Origin: Candidatus Eiseniibacteriota bacterium
Lineage (GTDB): Bacteria > Eisenbacteria > RBG-16-71-46
NCBI GenBank assembly: GCA_963707915.1
Contig: OY970178.1
Span: forward strand, 701,821 to 765,820
Length of the DNA: 64,000 nt
Reading direction: 5' to 3'
The notes under the pieces are model-generated. The model was not told the DNA's origin, made no database searches, and was given only the letters and a program-made list of their open reading frames with translations. Shown piece by piece: positions 2,936 through 64,000 of this stretch. The first letter of the stretch is position 1. Every line of letters begins with the position of its first letter. The position numbers and the translations under genes were made by a program.

Positions 2936-5899
2936 ATGAACGAGTCCAGGTGGCGGACCGTGGCGGCGGTGGTGGCGGTGTCGGCGATGGCCGCATGCAT
3001 CGCGGGCGCGCAGGTCGCGCCGCGGGCCCCGGCCGCGCCTCCGGCCGCTGCGACCGTGGGCGACCTGCGTATCGCGCAGGCCGAGCTCGATCGGCGCGGG
3101 CAGATGACGATCTCGGACTACAAGGCCCGCACGGGCAGCGACCTGCCGGCCGAGTTCCAGCCCCTCATGCGCCGCCAGATCCTCGAGAGCCTCATCCGCC
3201 GCGACCTGCTCACGCTCGAGGCCAGGCGCCGCGGGCTGCTGGCCAGCGAGCAGGAGGCCGAGGCCCAGCTCAAGAAGGACCCGTTCTTCCAGGTGAACGG
3301 GCGTTTCGATCCCGCGCGATACGAGGCGGCCCGTCTCCAGAACCCCGCCCTGCTGGCGAGCACCCTGCAGAACCTGCGGGCGACCCTCGGCGCGCAGGTT
3401 CTCATCGAGCGGGTGCAGAAGGAGAAGGCGCCGGGCGAAGCCCGGCTGCGCGCCCGGGCCGCCCGCGCGCTCACCCGCGCCTCCATCGACTACCTCGCCT
3501 TCCGCACTCCCGATTTCGACGACACGCCGACCGAGCCGCGCGAGATCGACGTGCTGAACGAGTATCGCGCCCATGCCGCCGACTACCTCCAACCGGCGCG
3601 CGCCGTGCTTTCCATCGTCTTCGTCGATCAGCCGGAGCTCCCCGCCGCCGAGGCTGCGGCCCCGGCGGCGCTCGCGGCCTGGAGCGCCCGCATGAAGCAG
3701 CGCGCCGACAGCGTCCTTGCCGCGGTCGCCGGTGGCGCGACGCTGGAGACGGCCTCGGTGGACCTCGGCGGCCCGCGCCCGAACCAGGTCGTCCTGCCCG
3801 GCAACTTCCCGGGCTACTGGCGCGGCGACCCCGCGACGAACGCCGCCCTCTTCGCGTCCCCGGCCGGCACCGTCCTGCCCCGGCCGGTACCGGCGCAGAA
3901 GGGCTGGCTGGTCGTGCGTACCGACGAGGTCGAGCCGGCCCACACGCGGCCGCTCGAGGAGGTCGCCCGCGAGATCCGTTCGCGGCTGCGCTCCGGGCAG
4001 CGCGCGGCGCTCGATGAGCGCGAGCTCCGGGCACTGTACGGCGAGGTGCGGGACAGCCTGAAGGTGACGGCGTATCGGCTGCGATACGCCGTCGCCGACA
4101 CCGCCGTCGTCGCGGTCGCCCGGCCGACCGCGGCGGAGGTCGAGCGGTACTACCGCGGTCACCTGGCCGACTATTCCTCGTTCAGCAGCCGGACGGGAGG
4201 CGTCGTGGCCCGGAGTCTCGACGAGGTGGAGGGCGACGTGCGGGCGCGGATGCTGAGCGAGCGCCGGTTCGAGCAGTCCCGCGTGCTCGCGAGCCAGCTG
4301 GCCGACACCTGGGCGCGCGGCCGGCGGGACGCGGCGCTCGAGCGGCGGTTGCGGACATGGGACGGTGACCCGGTCGTCCCGGGCCTGCCGGCGGATAGCG
4401 GGAGCCTGGGGGCGATGCTGGGGGACACGCTGGCGGGCCGCGCGGGCGCGCTCGGGTCCGGCCTCGCTCGTGCCACGCGGGGTTGGGTCGCGTTCGACAT
4501 CTACCAGGAGGTCCCGGGACACGTGCCGTCGTTCGAGCAGGCCCGCAAGGACCTCGCGGACCGCCGGGCCGCGCGGCGGCTCGCGCGCGAGGAGGAGGGG
4601 GCGCGACGGCTCTACGATTCCTCGCCGCAGCGATTCACCGGGGCACCCGTCATCCACTATTCGCGCGCGTTCGTGCCCATCCCGAAGGCGCTCACGATCC
4701 ACCTCACGCGGGCGGAGGTCGAACGGTTCCACCGCGACCACATGGATCTCTTCTCGGCCCCCGAGTTGGTGCGCGCGAGCCACATCCTCATCAGCCCGCG
4801 CGACTCGACGCCGGCGGCCGACCGCGAGGCCCGGGCCCGGGCCGACAGCCTGCTCGCCCGCCTGCGCGAGGGTGAGGACTTCGCGGAGATGGCGGCGCGG
4901 GTGACCGACGACCCGGCCACGAAGGATACCGGCGGGGATCTCGGCACGTTCGGACGCGGCGCGATGCTGCCCGAGATCGAGCGCGCCGCGTTCGCGATGC
5001 GTCCCGGGGACCTGAGCCCCGCGCCGGTCCGCAGCCCGGTCGGCTATCACCTCATCAAGACGCGGGAATACGTGCCGATGGTCGCGCAGCCCCTGGCGCA
5101 CATCTACTCCGACGTCGCCGAGATGGCGGCCGAGCAGAAGGCGGACTCCGTGGCGGCCCGGCGCGCCGACAGCCTGCTGCGCGTCCTGAAGAACGCCGGC
5201 CAGGCGCGCGAGGCGGCGAGGCGCATGGACCTCACGACCTACTCCTACCAGTACTCGATCGGCGAGTGGAGCAAGAACCCGCCGAACCTCCAGGCCTACT
5301 ACCAGCAGCTCGAGCGGCTGGCGGTCGGGCAGCTCGTCCCGCTGCACCCCCGGATCGGCGCACTGGGCTACGCGGTGACCTGGGTGGACAGCATCAGCCC
5401 GCCCGGCCCGGCGAGCTGGGAGAACGCCCGTGACCGGGCGCTCGAGGCCTACCGTGCCGACGGGGCCCTGCGCACGCTCACGGCCAAGCGGGTCGAGCTG
5501 GATTCCCTCCTGCAGGGCGGCTGGTCGTTCGACAGCATCGGCGCGCTCTGGGGCGGACTGCGGCACGCCGCGGACGTCGCTCCGGGCCAGACCATCGCCG
5601 GGATCGGCACCAGCGGCGCGGTGGACACGTTGATCTTCGGGCTCCACGGCACCGACGGTCTCGCGCCCGGCGTCCTCAGCGACTGGGTCACGCTCCCGGC
5701 CGGAGTCCTTCGCCTGCGCACGAAAGAGATCCGGCCGCCGGACGCGGGCGCCCTGACGACCCGGGTGGAGACCGAGCGCCGGACCGAGACGGAGCGTGCG
5801 CTGGTCGGCTTCTTCGAGGACCTCAAGAAGCGCTACCCCGTGCGGATCCTGGACCGCGGGCTGCGCGACGTGACGTTGCCTCCGCCGCCCACGCGCTGA
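2936..5899 (+). CDS. Periplasmic peptidyl-prolyl cis-trans isomerase, SurA/PpiD-like (parvulin domain) chaperone
   Basis: 987-aa ORF; N-terminal signal/TM (VAAVVAVSAMAACIAGAQ); SurA-N-like region; parvulin-type PPIase motif (HILISPRD...GGDLGTFGRGAMLPEIERAAFAMRPGDLS...GYHLIK); RBS aagggagag upstream. Confidence 0.75.
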   Translation: MNESRWRTVAAVVAVSAMAACIAGAQVAPRAPAAPPAAATVGDLRIAQAELDRRGQMTISDYKARTGSDLPAEFQPLMRRQILESLIRRDLLTLEARRRGLLASEQEAEAQLKKDPFFQVNGRFDPARYEAARLQNPALLASTLQNLRATLGAQVLIERVQKEKAPGEARLRARAARALTRASIDYLAFRTPDFDDTPTEPREIDVLNEYRAHAADYLQPARAVLSIVFVDQPELPAAEAAAPAALAAWSARMKQRADSVLAAVAGGATLETASVDLGGPRPNQVVLPGNFPGYWRGDPATNAALFASPAGTVLPRPVPAQKGWLVVRTDEVEPAHTRPLEEVAREIRSRLRSGQRAALDERELRALYGEVRDSLKVTAYRLRYAVADTAVVAVARPTAAEVERYYRGHLADYSSFSSRTGGVVARSLDEVEGDVRARMLSERRFEQSRVLASQLADTWARGRRDAALERRLRTWDGDPVVPGLPADSGSLGAMLGDTLAGRAGALGSGLARATRGWVAFDIYQEVPGHVPSFEQARKDLADRRAARRLAREEEGARRLYDSSPQRFTGAPVIHYSRAFVPIPKALTIHLTRAEVERFHRDHMDLFSAPELVRASHILISPRDSTPAADREARARADSLLARLREGEDFAEMAARVTDDPATKDTGGDLGTFGRGAMLPEIERAAFAMRPGDLSPAPVRSPVGYHLIKTREYVPMVAQPLAHIYSDVAEMAAEQKADSVAARRADSLLRVLKNAGQAREAARRMDLTTYSYQYSIGEWSKNPPNLQAYYQQLERLAVGQLVPLHPRIGALGYAVTWVDSISPPGPASWENARDRALEAYRADGALRTLTAKRVELDSLLQGGWSFDSIGALWGGLRHAADVAPGQTIAGIGTSGAVDTLIFGLHGTDGLAPGVLSDWVTLPAGVLRLRTKEIRPPDAGALTTRVETERRTETERALVGFFEDLKKRYPVRILDRGLRDVTLPPPPTR

Positions 5900-9385: not shown

Positions 9386-10327
9386 GTGGCCGCGCCCCGC
9401 GTCATCGCCGTCGTCGGCGCGACCGCCACCGGCAAGACCGACCTCGGCGAGGCGCTGGCCGATGCGATCGGCGGCGAGGTGGTGTGCGCCGACTCGCGCC
9501 AGGTCTTCCGCGAGCTCGAGATCGGCACCGGCAAGCCGTCGGCCGCCGAGCGCGGGACGCGGCCGCACCACCTGTTCGACGCGCTCGAGCTCGGGCAACG
9601 GCCGAGCGCCGGCTGGTACGCGAAGGCGGCCGGCGCGGTCTGCGGGGCGATCCACTCGCGCGGCCGCACTCCCGTGCTGGTGGGCGGCTCGGGGCTCTGG
9701 CTGCGCGCCGCCCAGCACGGCCTCTCGGGGGAGCCGCCGCACGACGCCGCGGTGCGGGCCCGCGTCCAGGCGGAGCTGGACGCGGCCGGCCCCGAAGCAC
9801 TGCACGAACGACTGGCCGCCGTCGACCCGGTCACCGCCGCGCGGCTCTCGCCCCGCGACCGCCAGCGCGTCACGCGCGCGCTCGAGGTCCACGAGGCCAG
9901 CGGCCGGCCGCTCTCGTGGTGGCACGAGCGCGAGGGCGAGCCCGCGGTGGTGGGGGAGTGGGCGGTGCTGGAACTGGCGCTGCCGTCACCGGAGCTGGAC
10001 GGGCGGATCGAGCGGCGCACGCGCTGGATGTTCGAGAACGGGCTGGTCGACGAGACGCGGGCGCTGGTCGGGGCGGGAAAGGCGGAGCCGCTGCGGGCGC
10101 TGCGCGCCGTGGGCTACGACGAGGCGCTCGACCTGATCGCGGGAGGAATCGGTCGCGCCGAGGCCGAGGCACGCACGAGCCTGCGCACCCGCCAGCTGGC
10201 CAAGCGCCAGCGGACCTGGTTCCGGCACCAGGGCGAGGCGATCCGGCTGGAGGCCGGCGGGCCCGCGGGTGGCCGGCTCCTCGAGGCCGCACTGCGGGCG
10301 CTGGGCCCCGGCCGGGCACGATCCTGA
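9386..10327 (+). CDS. miaA: tRNA dimethylallyltransferase MiaA
   Basis: P-loop AVVGATATGKTDL, VCADSRQVFRELEIGTGKP, SGLW motifs; GTG start 9386 just after mutL stop. Confidence 0.85.
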   Translation: MAAPRVIAVVGATATGKTDLGEALADAIGGEVVCADSRQVFRELEIGTGKPSAAERGTRPHHLFDALELGQRPSAGWYAKAAGAVCGAIHSRGRTPVLVGGSGLWLRAAQHGLSGEPPHDAAVRARVQAELDAAGPEALHERLAAVDPVTAARLSPRDRQRVTRALEVHEASGRPLSWWHEREGEPAVVGEWAVLELALPSPELDGRIERRTRWMFENGLVDETRALVGAGKAEPLRALRAVGYDEALDLIAGGIGRAEAEARTSLRTRQLAKRQRTWFRHQGEAIRLEAGGPAGGRLLEAALRALGPGRARS

Positions 10328-10400: not shown

Positions 10401-10476
10401 GCGGGCATAGCTCAGTTGGTAGAGCGCGAGCTTCCCAAGCTTGAGGTCGCGGGTTCGACCCCCGTTGCCCGCTCCA
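10401..10476 (+). tRNA. tRNA-Gly (anticodon CCC)
   Basis: 76-nt cloverleaf folded by hand: acceptor GCGGGCA/TGCCCGC, D-arm GCTC-AGTTGGTA-GAGC, anticodon loop TTCCCAA, T-arm GCGGG-TTCGACC-CCCGT, discriminator T, encoded CCA. Confidence 0.9.
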
Positions 10477-14036: not shown

Positions 14037-14113
14037 CGGGGCGTAGCGCAGCCCGGTAGCGCACCTGCATGGGGGGCAGGGGGTCGAAGGTTCAAATCCT
14101 TTCGCCCCGACCA
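14037..14113 (+). tRNA. tRNA-Pro (anticodon GGG)
   Basis: 77-nt cloverleaf: acceptor CGGGGCG/CGCCCCG, D-arm GCGC-AGCCCGGTA-GCGC, anticodon stem CCTGC/GCAGG with loop ATGGGGG (U33, G37), T-arm GAAGG-TTCAAAT-CCTTT, encoded CCA. Confidence 0.9.
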
Positions 14114-20103: not shown

Positions 20104-20180
<77 letters not shown>

Positions 20181-59525: not shown

Positions 59526-59607
59526 GCCTCATCCGCTGGCGCGCTTTCGGGGAGCCGGTTGAACCGCCTGCGCCGCTGATCGCGGCGACGAATCCGTGAC
59601 TGCTTCC

Positions 59608-60831
59608 CTAGGAGAGGAACAACCTGCGGTCGAGGTCGCCGGCCCGGACGGGCTTGCCTTGCAGGATGGTCCACTCGGGGATGATCCGCCTGGAGGTCCG
59701 GCGGATGTCGCCGGTCACGTCCTTGCAGGTGAATTCACCCTCGGCCAGTCTGAAGACGGTGAGGAAGGCTTCGGCGCCGGGCCGGATCTCCCGCTCGAGC
59801 TTGAGGAACTTCGCCGGCCCCGTGCTCGCCCGTTCCATGATCGCGGCGAGTGGCAGGCCCAGCGCCAGGAACTTGGTCAGCACATTGGCAAGAGTCTTGG
59901 CAGAGCCCGTGCTGAGGATATAGAGGTCGGAGCTGATGGTGAAATCGAGAAAGCCCTGGTCGAGCGCCTGCTCGGCCGCCTTGAACTCGAAGCTCGCCAT
60001 GCCGTGGCCGACGTCGAACTTCACGCCCCGGGCCAGGGCGTCTTTCACCGCCTCGTGAATCTTGCCGTTCTGGTCAATGATGCTGTTGCCATGGCCGCGC
60101 AAGAAATGCGTGACGACGTCGCCTTCCTTGAGATAGGGAAGCATATCCGTGAGGTAGGGCGGCGGTGGGCCGATATGGGCCATGCCCGGCAGATGGAGCA
60201 GGTCGCCGGCCTCGCGCAGCTTCTTCACGTAGTAGAGCTGGTCGGAGCGCGGCGACACCTGCTTGTCGGCCCGCACCTTGAGACCCACGATGCGGTGATT
60301 GCCTCCGGCGATGAGCTTCTCCATGGCCGGCAGATCGGCCCAGCCTTCCTTGGTCCGATAGTACTTGGTGATCTCGATCCCGTTCTTGACCACGCTCAGG
60401 AGGGCGAAGCAGGGCACTTCAGGGTTCGGTCCGACCGCGCGCTCCAGGCGGTCATAGTTGTTCACGCCCGTGGTGCCGGCGTCGAGCAGCGCGGTCACGC
60501 CGTGCGCCGCGCCCAGCCGCGAGATGGGTGACCCCGCGCTCTTGCCGTGTTGCCAATCCACGTAGTGAACGTGCAGGTCCACCCAGCCCGGGGAGACGTG
60601 GAGATCCCGGCCGGAAATCGTCTGGCCGGCTGAGGCCAGACTTCCCGGCGCGGCAATCTCGGCGATCCGGCCGTCCCGGATGCCCAGGTCGCAGCGCGAG
60701 AAGGACCCGCCCATCAGGGCCTGCACGTCGCGGAGCACCAGGTCGGCGACCGGCGCGGCCCAACCGCGGCCGGCCACCATCAGCCCCGCGGCGGATGCCG
60801 CGGTCCGCTTCACGAAGTCACGGCGCTTCAT
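59608..60831 (-). CDS. Tat-secreted metal-dependent amidohydrolase-family protein
   Basis: Twin-arginine signal MKRRDFVKRTAASAAGLMVAG; amidohydrolase-like metal ligands (HVHYVDW, GHG, FDVGHG); GGAGG RBS; lower GC than flanks. Confidence 0.7.
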   Translation of the reverse strand: MKRRDFVKRTAASAAGLMVAGRGWAAPVADLVLRDVQALMGGSFSRCDLGIRDGRIAEIAAPGSLASAGQTISGRDLHVSPGWVDLHVHYVDWQHGKSAGSPISRLGAAHGVTALLDAGTTGVNNYDRLERAVGPNPEVPCFALLSVVKNGIEITKYYRTKEGWADLPAMEKLIAGGNHRIVGLKVRADKQVSPRSDQLYYVKKLREAGDLLHLPGMAHIGPPPPYLTDMLPYLKEGDVVTHFLRGHGNSIIDQNGKIHEAVKDALARGVKFDVGHGMASFEFKAAEQALDQGFLDFTISSDLYILSTGSAKTLANVLTKFLALGLPLAAIMERASTGPAKFLKLEREIRPGAEAFLTVFRLAEGEFTCKDVTGDIRRTSRRIIPEWTILQGKPVRAGDLDRRLFLS

Positions 60832-61186
60832 CCTTCTGCCTCCGCAAGCTGGTACGTCGGCCACTATCCCGCCCCCGGACTCGCGGTTCAAGCGGCATCT
60901 TTCTTCCCATCGATCGCCCTCCGATCCCGGGACCGATCACGCGTGTTCGATAGAAGGGTGGAGGCGCCCTTGCTGCCCCTCCCGGCGATGAGGCCCAGGC
61001 TCCCTCTGGGCCGGGCACCGTCGGGCCGCCCGTGCCGCATCCTGCCGGCGGGGTGCTATATTGCCCACGAGGTTCATGGGAGGGAGGGGCTCGCTGGCCG
61101 CGCTTCCCGAGCAGCTCGCGATCTTCAGCGCACGTACCACCGTTTCCGCCGCGCCCCTCGGTGCGGCCGACGAAGGAGGTCCAAGC

Positions 61187-61786
61187 ATGAAGACGGCACT
61201 TGCTCTCGCGTTGGGAATGCTCCTCGCATCCTCCGCACTTGCCGAGCCTCCGCAAAGGAAGAATGAGGTCTTCATCGGAGTCGGCTCTGGCCCCGTCGTC
61301 TTCGTCCTGCAGGCGATTGGGGACGTGTTCGTCGACGTCGCATTCCACGGCGGGGGCAGCTACCGGACCGAGGGTTCGGGCGGCGGGCAATTCGTGGCCG
61401 GATACCAGCATCGGTTCAACCGTTTGCTGGGGGCTGGCGCGAGCGGATCCTGGGCCAAGATCAGCGAGGATCTGTACCGGGAGGGCGAGAACCAGAAGCT
61501 CTCCACGACCACCCGCCAGATGGTGACGATTCAGGTGGACGGGCGCCTGCACTGGGTCGACTGGCGTTGGGGGGGGCTCTACTCGAACGTCGGCCTGGGC
61601 TTCGCCGCGCGCCACTACGAGTACACCGACGATGAGTACCACGTCTCGTTTTCGCACGACTGGAGCCACGCCGCCGTGAACCTGATCCCGCTGGGCGTCC
61701 GCCTCGGGGGCGACGTCGCCGGGCACCTCGAGATCGGCGGCGTCACGAACAGCTGGGTCACCGCCGGGCTCTCCTACCGCTTCTAG
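61187..61786 (+). CDS. Small outer-membrane beta-barrel protein (OmpW/OmpA-like), C-terminal Phe
   Basis: Signal peptide MKTALALALGMLLASSALA; alternating hydrophobic beta-strand pattern; ends ...SYRF; RBS gaaggagg. Confidence 0.6.
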   Translation: MKTALALALGMLLASSALAEPPQRKNEVFIGVGSGPVVFVLQAIGDVFVDVAFHGGGSYRTEGSGGGQFVAGYQHRFNRLLGAGASGSWAKISEDLYREGENQKLSTTTRQMVTIQVDGRLHWVDWRWGGLYSNVGLGFAARHYEYTDDEYHVSFSHDWSHAAVNLIPLGVRLGGDVAGHLEIGGVTNSWVTAGLSYRF

Positions 61787-62905
61787 GCTCCAGGCGATGG
61801 CTGGCATCCCCGGCGTGCGGCTCCATCAAGCCGGCGCGCCGGGGATGTCGGTTTCCGCACGGCAAAGGCCAGCGCCACGCCATTCAGGACGTTGCCGTGG
61901 TGGTCAGCCGGGTGTTCGAAATCGGCGACCGCAGCCAGTCTGCTCCGAGTCCCTACGGAGGAGCCGGAGGAACGGGCAAGGCCACTTGGCATATCCTTGA
62001 AGGCCCTGGGGCCGCTGTCTCGGCAGCCGCGCGGCTCAGACGCTTCGGGACAGGAAGAGTGACGCTCGAGACCAGCACCAAAGCGGGACCAACAACCCGT
62101 GCACTTGCGCCCACAACCGCGGACCCGTAGCCACGCAGGGTAAGCAGGGTGCTGACCAGCTGCGTAGGTCCGCCGACCTGCCGGCTTCAGGCTGACCGAT
62201 GGCGGGAAGGCCACCACGCTGGCCAGGTCCTTCCGGCCGATGGTGAGCGTACCGAGGTGGCCGGTCCCGGCCCTCCGTGCTCAGGCACGGGCGAACGCCT
62301 GCCGTTGAGCTCTTCGTGTAGGTTCCTGCGATGTCCGGCAGATTGCAGCGTTCCACCGCCGCGGGAGACGGTGCCGGGGTCGCCGACCGCGGAGTCTCCG
62401 CGCGCTGTAGCCCGAGCAGAATGCACGCGGCGAGCGCACAAGGGATGAACCAGGGGAGGAAACGCGCGACCGTCCGGGTGAACGCAGAGCGACGAGGGTC
62501 CAGGTCTTGGTGGCACTCCTTCGACCTGGGGGAGGGCCTCCTGCACGATCGAGTGTTGCGACTCACAACGGAGTCGCCTGCGAAGCCGTCAGCACGCCAC
62601 GGCGGCCACCGGGGAGTTCGCAGCCACGACGCGGTTGCGTGGCCAGATCCTCCGAGACCACGAGGCGACATGTTACGCCTCGACCCGTCATGTACAAGGC
62701 TTCTTCGGACGACGGTCTGACGGACCGCGTGCCTGCTTGATTTCCCCCCTGAGCGAAGTGCGCTATCTTGCTGCCGCGTGGCCCCGTAGCTCAGACGGAT
62801 CGAGCAGCGGTTTCCCAAGACGTCACGGGCAAGCTGCGTCGCATCGTGTCGGCACGCGCCGAACCGTGCGCGCCCGGCTGCGGGGCCACCGAGGAGACGC
62901 CCCCG

Positions 62906-63679
62906 ATGTCGGACTTCTCGCTCGACAAGTGGTACATGGACGCCGCCGACGGCGAAGGCAATGTCTACATCGGCTACTGGGCGGCGCTGCACTGGAAGGG
63001 GCTGTCGTCCCACTTCGGCCACCACCTGTGGCGTGCCGCGACGGGCCGCTCATGGTCGCGGGCCGATCTCGGGGCGCCGCCCGCGCCAGACCGCGCGGCC
63101 TCCGACGTGTTCCACTGGCGCACTGCGCATGTCGATGCGACCTGGCGGCGGTCGGAGACGCCGCGCCTCTCCGAAACGCTGCTCGACACCGAACAGGGCC
63201 GGATCGAGTGGACCTGCCTGCTTCCCCGTGCGCGCGCGACGGTGCGCTCGCCGCGGCTCTCGGTCGAGGGCTGGGGCTACGTCGAGCGGCTCGAGCTCAC
63301 GCTGCCGCCGTGGGGCCTGCCACTCGAGACGCTCCACTGGGGCCGCTGCCTGTCGGACCACCACAGCCTGGTGTGGATCCGCTGGGACGGTCCCGACCCG
63401 CGGCGGCTGCTGTGGGTGGACGGCCGGCGCGGCACCGAATACGAGCTCACGGAAGACGGCCTCGTCGCTCCCGGTGCCCGCTGGGAGATCGAGAGCACGA
63501 TGACGCTCCGCACGGGCACGATCGGCGCGACGGTGTTGCGGCCGTTTCGCCGGCTATTGCGGCTGCTGCCCGACGCGGTGACACGCATCGACGAGCACAA
63601 GCGCTTCGCCCGCGGCGTGCTGCATGTCGGGGGCGCGTCTGAACCGGCCACCGCCATCACGGAGCGGGTGACGTGGTGA
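62906..63679 (+). CDS. Hypothetical protein
   Basis: Start ATG 62906 preceded by GAGGAG; 257 aa; no family recognised; ORF track start 62768 less likely. Confidence 0.5.
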   Translation: MSDFSLDKWYMDAADGEGNVYIGYWAALHWKGLSSHFGHHLWRAATGRSWSRADLGAPPAPDRAASDVFHWRTAHVDATWRRSETPRLSETLLDTEQGRIEWTCLLPRARATVRSPRLSVEGWGYVERLELTLPPWGLPLETLHWGRCLSDHHSLVWIRWDGPDPRRLLWVDGRRGTEYELTEDGLVAPGARWEIESTMTLRTGTIGATVLRPFRRLLRLLPDAVTRIDEHKRFARGVLHVGGASEPATAITERVTW

Positions 63680-64000
63680 CGAACGGCCGCGGGCTCGCGG
63701 GCCGGGTCGGCTACGGACTGCTGTTCGTGGCCGTGCTGCCGGCGCTCCTCCTGTCCTGGGCGAACCGGCTCGACGCCGTGCTCCGATGGCCCGTGCCGGA
63801 GTGGCACACGCCCGGCCTCGTGCTCGCCGGCGCGGGCTCCCTGCTCGCGCTTGCCGGCATGCGCGCGCTGATCGTCCGCGGGCGCGGGCTGCCCATGAAC
63901 GCCTATCCACCCCTCGTCTTCGTCACCAACGGCGTATACGCGCTCCTGGCGCACCCGATCTACGCGGGCGCCTTCCTCGCCGCGGTGGGCGCATCGCTCT
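63676..64000 (+). CDS. Membrane methyltransferase-family protein (isoprenylcysteine carboxyl methyltransferase/phospholipid methyltransferase-like); 3' partial
   Basis: GTG start overlapping upstream stop; TM segments and motif LVTNGVYALLAHPIYAG resembling the ICMT-family signature; runs off window end. Confidence 0.55.
   Translation, partial: MTNGRGLAGRVGYGLLFVAVLPALLLSWANRLDAVLRWPVPEWHTPGLVLAGAGSLLALAGMRALIVRGRGLPMNAYPPLVFVTNGVYALLAHPIYAGAFLAAVGASL

Follow-up and report, generated by a model that had tools for sequence, protein, structure and literature searches.

A gene-poor kilobase with a truncated tRNA-Arg(CCU) gene and a lipoprotein pseudogene, a probable junction within a genomic-island array

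The window, by which we mean the whole 64,000-nt stretch of DNA analyzed herein, contains at positions 61787-62905 an interval that lies between a 241-aa gene on its left and an operon that begins with a 257-aa gene on its right. The features that we recognized in and beside this interval, many of them through comparison with related loci (designated by L numbers), are the following.

61061-61786, flanking gene on the left, 241 aa, no Pfam match, a putative outer-membrane beta-barrel gene according to the initial annotation
61805-61847, plus strand, terminator-like hairpin with no clear T run (inverted repeat I3)
61848-62029, no strand assigned, about 180 nt of non-coding DNA without a Pfam match in any frame
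62030-62525 (approximate), minus strand, pseudogene of a 165-aa predicted lipoprotein, with its homologue at L135 1680-2177
62526-62533, no strand assigned, approximate deletion junction, at which L135 716-1721 is missing
62534-62712, no strand assigned, spacer common to L124 and L135, where it lies between a divergent DUF7670 gene and the tRNA module
62713-62779, plus strand, module "U", found conserved upstream of tRNA-Arg(CCU) genes, presumed promoter
62780-62818, plus strand, tRNA-Arg(CCU) 5' half, comprising the acceptor strand, the D arm, the 5' anticodon stem, and the anticodon loop
62819-62833, plus strand, left end of a recurrent island type ("Fam1"), of which the initial 15 nt are present, GACGTCACGGGCAAG
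62834-62905, plus strand, leader preceding the 257-aa gene, also kept in L001 and L009

Our measurements uphold the view of the initial annotation that the interval is poor in genes. Specifically, the difference in GC between its codon phases is 0.027, relative to a mean of 0.315 for the 1119-nt stretches of the window, and this near absence of codon periodicity falls in the lowest 0.6% of same-size window stretches; the flanking genes have GC3 values of at least 0.9. Six-frame Pfam scans of 61787-62905, together with scans of the ORFs in it, returned no match. The lower GC that had also been claimed for the interval is real but modest (0.683, relative to a window mean of 0.724, which is in the lowest 7.6% of same-size stretches). 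The low-GC zone, at about 59600-62900, is wider than the gene-poor stretch, given that two genes to the left, an amidohydrolase-like gene (59608-60891, minus strand) and the 241-aa gene, share low values (0.666-0.667, against 0.724 for the window), and this zone may represent further island-derived DNA. As for the good start that had been proposed at 62906, the ATG at that position is indeed the start called in the relatives (we took it from the representative of the identical 257-aa cluster), although strong coding-type periodicity seems to run from about 62846. Directly after the stop of the 241-aa gene, the I3 hairpin has 14-nt arms that are 93% complementary and enclose a 15-nt loop; a terminator scan did not call it. 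The non-coding DNA behind it, at 61848-62029, gave a single 26-nt match, at chance level, when compared with the 135 fetched loci, and may be a diverged pseudogene tail or more island debris.

The tRNA-like 5' half that had been noticed near the right end of the interval was confirmed and could be assigned. Positions 62780-62818 read GGCCCCG-TA-GCTC-AGACGGATC-GAGC-A-GCGGT-TTCCCAA and agree with the 5' half of intact tRNA-Arg(CCU) genes at 37-38 of 39 bases, with point changes in the D loop (A to C) and in the anticodon (CCU to CCC). The piece spans tRNA position 1 to the end of the anticodon loop and is an end fragment, not an internal one. Behind the loop, the T arm and the 3' acceptor strand are absent, the sequence continuing with GACGTCACGGGCAAG, as opposed to ACCGCGTGCCGG..GTTCGA in intact genes. 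A profile built from the related loci (the island-end family) matched 62712-62833 with an nhmmer E value of 1e-32, ended at 62833, and had no other match in the window, and the tRNA-like piece is therefore, as judged by this profile, far beyond chance. In the closest relatives (L003 and L005-L008), the 5' half reads GGCCCCGTAGCTCAG(G/A)CGGATAGAGCAGCGG(T/C)TTCCTAA. We rejected TTCCCAA as a Gly(CCC) loop, given that it is a mutated Arg(CCU) loop, the counterpart of which is TTCCTAA in L003 and L005-L008 and TTCCCAT in L135. The intact tRNAs of the window (10401-10476, 14037-14113, and 20104-20180) are Gly-CCC, Pro-GGG, and Pro-CGG, and the Gly-CCC gene was also dismissed as the source of the fragment, its likeness being confined to generic tRNA positions.

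Covariance-model and tRNA scans, which the initial annotation had put forward as checks along with an alignment to related genomes, call no RNA gene in the region. ARAGORN placed all 3 tRNAs of the 64-kb window elsewhere and none at 61787-62905, and with lowered thresholds and introns allowed it produced implausible models only; the tRNA detectors recognized no complete cloverleaf. Rfam identified no RNA family in the region, with RF00005 absent even at E values up to 10, and an Rfam scan of the sequence cut at the anticodon loop, aimed at a truncated tRNA, returned nothing. A tRNA 3' half sought with a loose regular expression gave chance hits only; a T-arm-like string at 61915-61936 failed on inspection and was dropped. 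In the alignment with related genomes, the closest relatives share the 5' half, as do the 72 intact tRNA-Arg(CCU) genes listed in the survey described below.

Upstream of the fragment, the 67-nt module U also occurs 5' of intact tRNA-Arg(CCU) genes in L046, L076, L106, L108, and L033, as well as 5' of other fragments, and it is therefore the native upstream region of that gene. It is presumed to carry the tRNA-Arg(CCU) promoter; a sigma-70 consensus scan called no hexamers in 62713-62779. Downstream of the fragment, positions 62819-62833 match, base for base, the 15 nt directly behind the fragment in L030 and L135; in those two loci, ATGAGCCCG... comes next.

Exact look-ups of the two flanking proteins and of P0001 returned no entry, and the context was drawn from cluster members and homologues. 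Near-identical relatives of the 257-aa protein were found in metagenome contigs, together with a homologue at 88% in a MAG that bears the label Candidatus Eisenbacteria, and a profile search of genome contigs with a 5-sequence alignment yielded 6 loci. The homology of the window to its >90% relatives (L005-L008) breaks off precisely at the fragment's first base. Flank identity thus changes at the fragment boundary, and the sequence behind the loop falls into several recurrent families. Further, blastn revealed that the module and 5' half (62713-62819) recur 3 kb downstream in the close relatives, where the second copy comes after the 257-aa gene, the PEMT/LGT gene (585 aa), and some 310 nt of non-coding DNA; the three-gene unit of these relatives is therefore flanked by direct 5'-half repeats. 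Ahead of the upstream copy, L005-L008 retain 60 codons of a tyrosine recombinase C terminus (LGHASIETTQRDAR), and this remnant has its stop codon inside the tRNA piece. Assemblies were also seen to break in or at the tRNA-Arg 5' half (L003, and the starts of L002 and L004), and L003, at 3052 nt, runs exactly from copy to copy; contig ends of this type are what a repeat-bounded, circular or tandem unit would produce.

Scanning metagenome contigs with a 33-nt pattern of the 5' half, we obtained at least 120 loci, with 125 matches listed. ARAGORN recognized 72 of the 125 listed matches as intact tRNA-Arg(CCU) genes; the other 53 were not tRNAs, a few of them lying at contig ends, and about 48 copies among the matches listed (120 loci) are fragments. 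When the 49 listed fragments with enough flank were classed by regular expression, 37 diverged right after ...TTCCTAA and 9 did so four bases later. Wherever a listed locus held multiple copies, these were direct repeats (15 of 15), and in each of the five listed multi-copy loci that include an intact tRNA, the intact tRNA was the downstream-most copy. In 13 listed loci, a tyrosine-recombinase signature lay on the same strand no more than 1 kb upstream, before intact tRNAs in 8 of them, and Pfam confirmed PF00589 for L064, L119, and the L100 fragment. The bounded units of L060, L076, and L089 contain 2-6 kb of ordinary genes, none with a complete integrase. The nearest to a full array is L100, with a fragment, cargo, an integrase remnant, and a fragment; a fragment, cargo, an integrase, and an intact tRNA were found together in no single listed contig.

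The DNA to the left of the fragment can be read against L135, which shares the window's junction (a 5' half, then the 15-nt island end, then the operon leader) and whose left side is intact. That side carries a divergent DUF7670 gene and genes for a 146-aa protein and a 165-aa predicted lipoprotein, the set being delimited by one more tRNA-Arg 5' half. The spacer to the left of module U lies in homology that amounts to 84.5% over 303 nt to L124 and 88.5% over 323 nt to L135. Relative to L135 716-1721, about 1 kb has been deleted, such that the DUF7670 gene and the 146-aa gene are absent from the window. This deletion is bracketed by matches on both sides (62534-62850 corresponds to L135 715-396, and 62130-62470 to L135 2085-1722), and both of its ends carry short GGCCC(C/T)...CCCC repeats. 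Beyond the deletion, the blastn match of 62130-62470 to L135 2085-1722 has 75% identity over 366 nt (E = 7e-51), and tblastn of the lipoprotein gave 51% identity over residues 7-86 (E = 1e-23). In a MAFFT alignment, the ATG is lost to a 5-nt deletion, the lipobox Cys codon is destroyed, and the gene is frameshifted by indels (-4, -1, and -2). Read from these alignments, 62030-62525 is a pseudogene of the 165-aa predicted lipoprotein family, and it is because of this pseudogene that a weak one-phase GC3 signal (0.77) appears at 62280-62640, in the matching phase.

On the right, the initial annotation had pointed to a downstream CGGGGCC-ACC as the complement of the acceptor strand. The complement exists, given that a 13-nt inverted repeat, GTGGCCCCGTAGC / GCTGCGGGGCCAC, at 62778-62790 and 62877-62889 is complementary at 12 of 13 positions, but an over-long tRNA closure is the wrong reading of it, as the 3' arm is part of a conserved leader and drifts without compensation. 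Specifically, the leader contains a hairpin at about 62848-62877, CGGGGCC-ACC at 62881-62890, and GAGGAG at 62891-62896, followed by the ATG at 62906, and L001 (85%) and L009 (88%), which are without the tRNA piece, yet keep 60-70 nt of leader that include the CGGGGCC-ACC region. The counterpart of CGGGGCC is CGTGGCC or TGTGGCC in the closest relatives and, among the relatives as a whole, also GCGACC or GCAGCC, none of them compensated. Since the 3' arm sits in a leader that is kept by relatives without the tRNA piece, the acceptor-like pairing GGCCCCG/CGGGGCC-ACC is, by this comparison, fortuitous, an accident of the fusion. The GC-rich leader hairpin (GGCACGCGC-CGAACC-GTGCGCGCC, 62848-62877) is also present in L009 at about 9945-9975 and in L001 at about 455-485; it is kept in these relatives of 85-88% identity, with some changes on both arms, and could be a regulatory or terminator-like element.

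Very probably, in our view, the stretch combines the decayed interior of a genomic-island array with one of its junctions, the array being located at a tRNA-Arg(CCU) gene. In the process that we envisage for this lineage, the relatives of which are labelled Candidatus Eisenbacteria, elements with tyrosine integrases would recombine in the anticodon loop of tRNA-Arg(CCU), each bringing its own upstream module and tRNA 5' half beside its integrase gene. On insertion, the 5' half of the element and the resident 3' half would rebuild the tRNA, and the resident module and 5' half would be displaced upstream as a dead fragment. Repeated insertions would then stack such fragments as direct repeats, with the sole intact tRNA coming last. 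Positions 62713-62833 would represent one such junction, in which the upstream module and the 5' half are followed by the outermost 15 nt of the next element on its left side, and a later deletion would have fused this island end with the 257-aa / PEMT-LGT operon, at its leader. The preceding array member, on the left side, would have decayed, with its lipoprotein gene dead and two further genes deleted. We infer the order of these events, the promoter activity of the module, and recombination as the maker of the window's copy. Among the candidates offered by the initial annotation, a decayed gene or tRNA was right, in the form of the tRNA-Arg(CCU) 5' fragment and the minus-strand lipoprotein pseudogene, and so was a remnant of an integrated element, in the form of a displaced tRNA-Arg(CCU) fragment at an island junction; an unannotated ncRNA found no support, there being neither an Rfam or ARAGORN call nor compensatory changes.

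Counting against the island reading, an integrase motif scan of the 64-kb window found none, and neither tblastn nor six-frame Pfam searches revealed an integrase remnant in 61000-62950. Given that there is no integrase in the window, what it holds would be a remnant, not an intact island. A decayed integrase sought specifically in 61787-62712 (by six-frame Pfam and by tblastn with 13 integrases of related loci) yielded noise only. Neither an intact tRNA-Arg(CCU) nor a second fragment is present in the window, which ends 1 kb after the junction, and, the sequence stopping at 64000, no intact gene comes into view. Around 61880-61900, where the window is similar to sequence upstream in L009, we considered another decayed fragment or attL-like site but rejected it, since the island-end profile matched the window only once. 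The 257-aa / PEMT-LGT operon is found, too, in relatives that are more distant and carry no tRNA fragment, and it may be island cargo or host DNA.

Several other explanations of the stretch can be weighed against the same observations. It seems quite improbable that the 113 nt at 62780-62892 form a functional structured RNA, tRNA-like or rod-like, that acts as an ncRNA or as a regulatory 5' leader of the 257-aa gene. The fold of this sequence is stable (-59.9 kcal/mol, z = -3.3, a stability equalled by 1 of 200 shuffles), its 10-pair closing stem is predicted in 4 of 4 close relatives, and the intact upstream module points into the operon. However, z is inflated because the ends of the stretch were chosen from complementarity, compensatory changes affect 0 of the 36 predicted pairs, the 5' arm being fixed as the 3' arm drifts (CGGGGCC, CGTGGCC, TGTGGCC), and this 3' arm lies in a leader that L009 and L001 carry without the 5' arm. 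Further, the putative RNA is without an Rfam or ARAGORN match, and at other loci many unrelated sequences adjoin this 5' half. An overlooked protein gene has next to no probability in our assessment, even though long ORFs are present, one of 329 aa on the minus strand (62036-63025) and one of 129 aa on the plus strand (62331-62720), and the GC3 at 62280-62640 favors one phase. Neither ORF has a Pfam match, the minus-strand ORF overlaps, in antisense, the beginning of the genuine 257-aa gene, and the weak GC3 signal is accounted for by the frameshifted, start-less lipoprotein pseudogene.

The remaining explanations concern the break in the tRNA itself. Since the break falls at the anticodon loop, which is where tRNA introns sit, one might suppose an interrupted but functional tRNA-Arg, with a group I or other intron in that loop or, as a split tRNA, with a distant 3' half, and group I introns are known in bacterial tRNA-Arg(CCU) genes. 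We regard the chance of this as extremely slim. Rfam at the gathering threshold found no intron or tRNA match in this region of the window, nor in L002, L005, L007, or L009 (a group I intron suspected behind the downstream fragment of L005 and L002 was discarded for lack of Rfam support), no group I intron fold with a 3' exon could be recognized, no 3' half was within reach, and ARAGORN with introns allowed gave junk only. In addition, a coding gene begins 87 nt after the break, the anticodon and the D loop of the window fragment are mutated, and the arrays elsewhere run from a fragment through 2-6 kb of ordinary genes to a complete tRNA. A non-specific break, by random deletion or by insertion of an insertion sequence and without site-specific recombination, is likewise very improbable, although deletions clearly occurred nearby and L002 provides an example of such an insertion. 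There, an IS5-like element (3043-3944, with DDE_Tnp_1 and DUF4096 ORFs and terminal inverted repeats GAGCTCCTA.../...TAGGAGCTC) sits exactly in the anticodon-loop TAA of the downstream fragment, with a TAA target duplication. Yet once this element is removed, the flank of L002 is the same non-tRNA sequence that follows the fragment in L005, and not a tRNA 3' half. Moreover, the truncation point recurs in about 48 listed fragments, mostly directly after the loop and joined to several recurrent families, and integrase genes are consistently adjacent.

Closer to the island-array reading is the idea that the units bounded by the module and the tRNA-Arg 5' half form a cassette array at tRNA-Arg(CCU), the integrase-less units of which are mobilized in trans by integrases nearby, and in which displaced modules serve as outward promoters for the next unit. 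We hold this to be unlikely. If it were true, the window module would drive the 257-aa / PEMT-LGT operon via a stable tRNA-derived 5' leader.

The island array that we favor can be placed among known systems. Classical phages and islands that integrate at tRNA genes, those of the P4 type, use the 3' part of the tRNA. Our proposed elements would resemble them in that the element carries a partial tRNA copy and the gene is restored after insertion, but the arrangement is their mirror image: the 5' half and its upstream module are duplicated, the integrase lies upstream and reads toward the tRNA, and the dead fragment is upstream. In Streptococcus thermophilus, cis-mobilizable, att-bounded remnants without an integrase stack in tandem beside ICESt1-type elements. 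The units of 2-6 kb described above are like these remnants in their att-like repeat bounds, their lack of an integrase, and their stacking at one site; they may also be simply decayed islands. For the 5' side, the Islander collection comprises 159 of 3919 tDNA islands with a 5' tDNA fragment, as opposed to 3760 with a 3' fragment, together with 125 tandem arrays, and islands whose 5' fragment lies upstream of the tDNA count there as valid (PMC4383910). As in the 5'-fragment islands of Islander (PMC4383910), the related loci have a tyrosine integrase adjoining the tRNA, a crossover region in the anticodon loop, direct repeats of the tRNA end, an intact tRNA regenerated at one end, and tandem arrays. 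With regard to the orientation that Islander demands, the related loci have direct repeats in 15 of 15 cases and the intact tRNA last in 5 of 5, and the view in the window ends at 64000; with regard to the integrase that it demands, none lies in the window, and integrases or their remnants stand at the equivalent place in L005-L008, L064, L119, and L100. Unlike intact Islander islands, the window presents a scar, with no integrase, no intact tRNA-Arg(CCU) in view, an island end of 15 nt, and a presumably later deletion that fused this end to another operon.

The stretch is an ordinary genomic scar of a known kind, with the 5'-side configuration, which is the less common one, from a lineage that has been little studied, and it is not a new RNA gene. 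The empty kilobase is thereby explained without a new RNA, and its annotation is corrected: a tRNA-Gly-like gene or an ncRNA would be mistaken labels, and the entry should read tDNA 5' fragment plus pseudogene. Our results also single out tRNA-Arg(CCU) as a hot spot of frequent integration in a soil lineage that is uncultivated and poorly known, the fragments (about 48) being more than half as frequent as intact genes (72) among the listed metagenome matches. In the minority 5'-side configuration, the element must supply a promoter plus half a tRNA, and the loci assembled here form a convenient natural data set on how such integrases choose sides and on island boundaries in these genomes.

Some further observations concern the operon and the island ends. 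The 257-aa gene that begins at 62906 has no Pfam domain and is followed by a gene for a 585-aa fusion of PEMT-like and LGT-like parts, the two genes overlapping by 4 nt in the window (63676-63679); the same pair occurs at L005 5938-8803 and L002 97-2962. Homologues of the 257-aa protein are encoded in MAGs labelled Anaerolineales, Hymenobacter, Phycisphaerales, and Acidobacteriota, and a 256-aa ORF of the island in L088, when tested as a further homologue, proved not to be homologous. Among the island ends, one recurrent family consists of a variable hairpin followed by CACG(T/C)TAAG(T/C)CATT(C/G)GGAACA... and is found in L005 (8882-9170), L002 (3945-4100), L018, L027, L035, L036, L059-L062, L069, L091, L104, L112, L120, and L124. 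Rfam gave no match in the two loci of this family that were scanned (L002 and L005), and the motif could serve as an arm site for an integrase, mark where an antisense gene ends, or belong to a small RNA. Fam1, of which 15 nt are left in the window, stands directly after the fragment in L030, L032, L077, L085, L096, and L135. Its start is a conserved run of about 46 codons, MSPTTEVVVTQCPACGCRRERG(I/F)VLWSGGDRKGQEWTLNRRPIGDQ, without a Pfam match, which may encode a cysteine-rich, possibly DNA-binding small protein or may be only conserved DNA.
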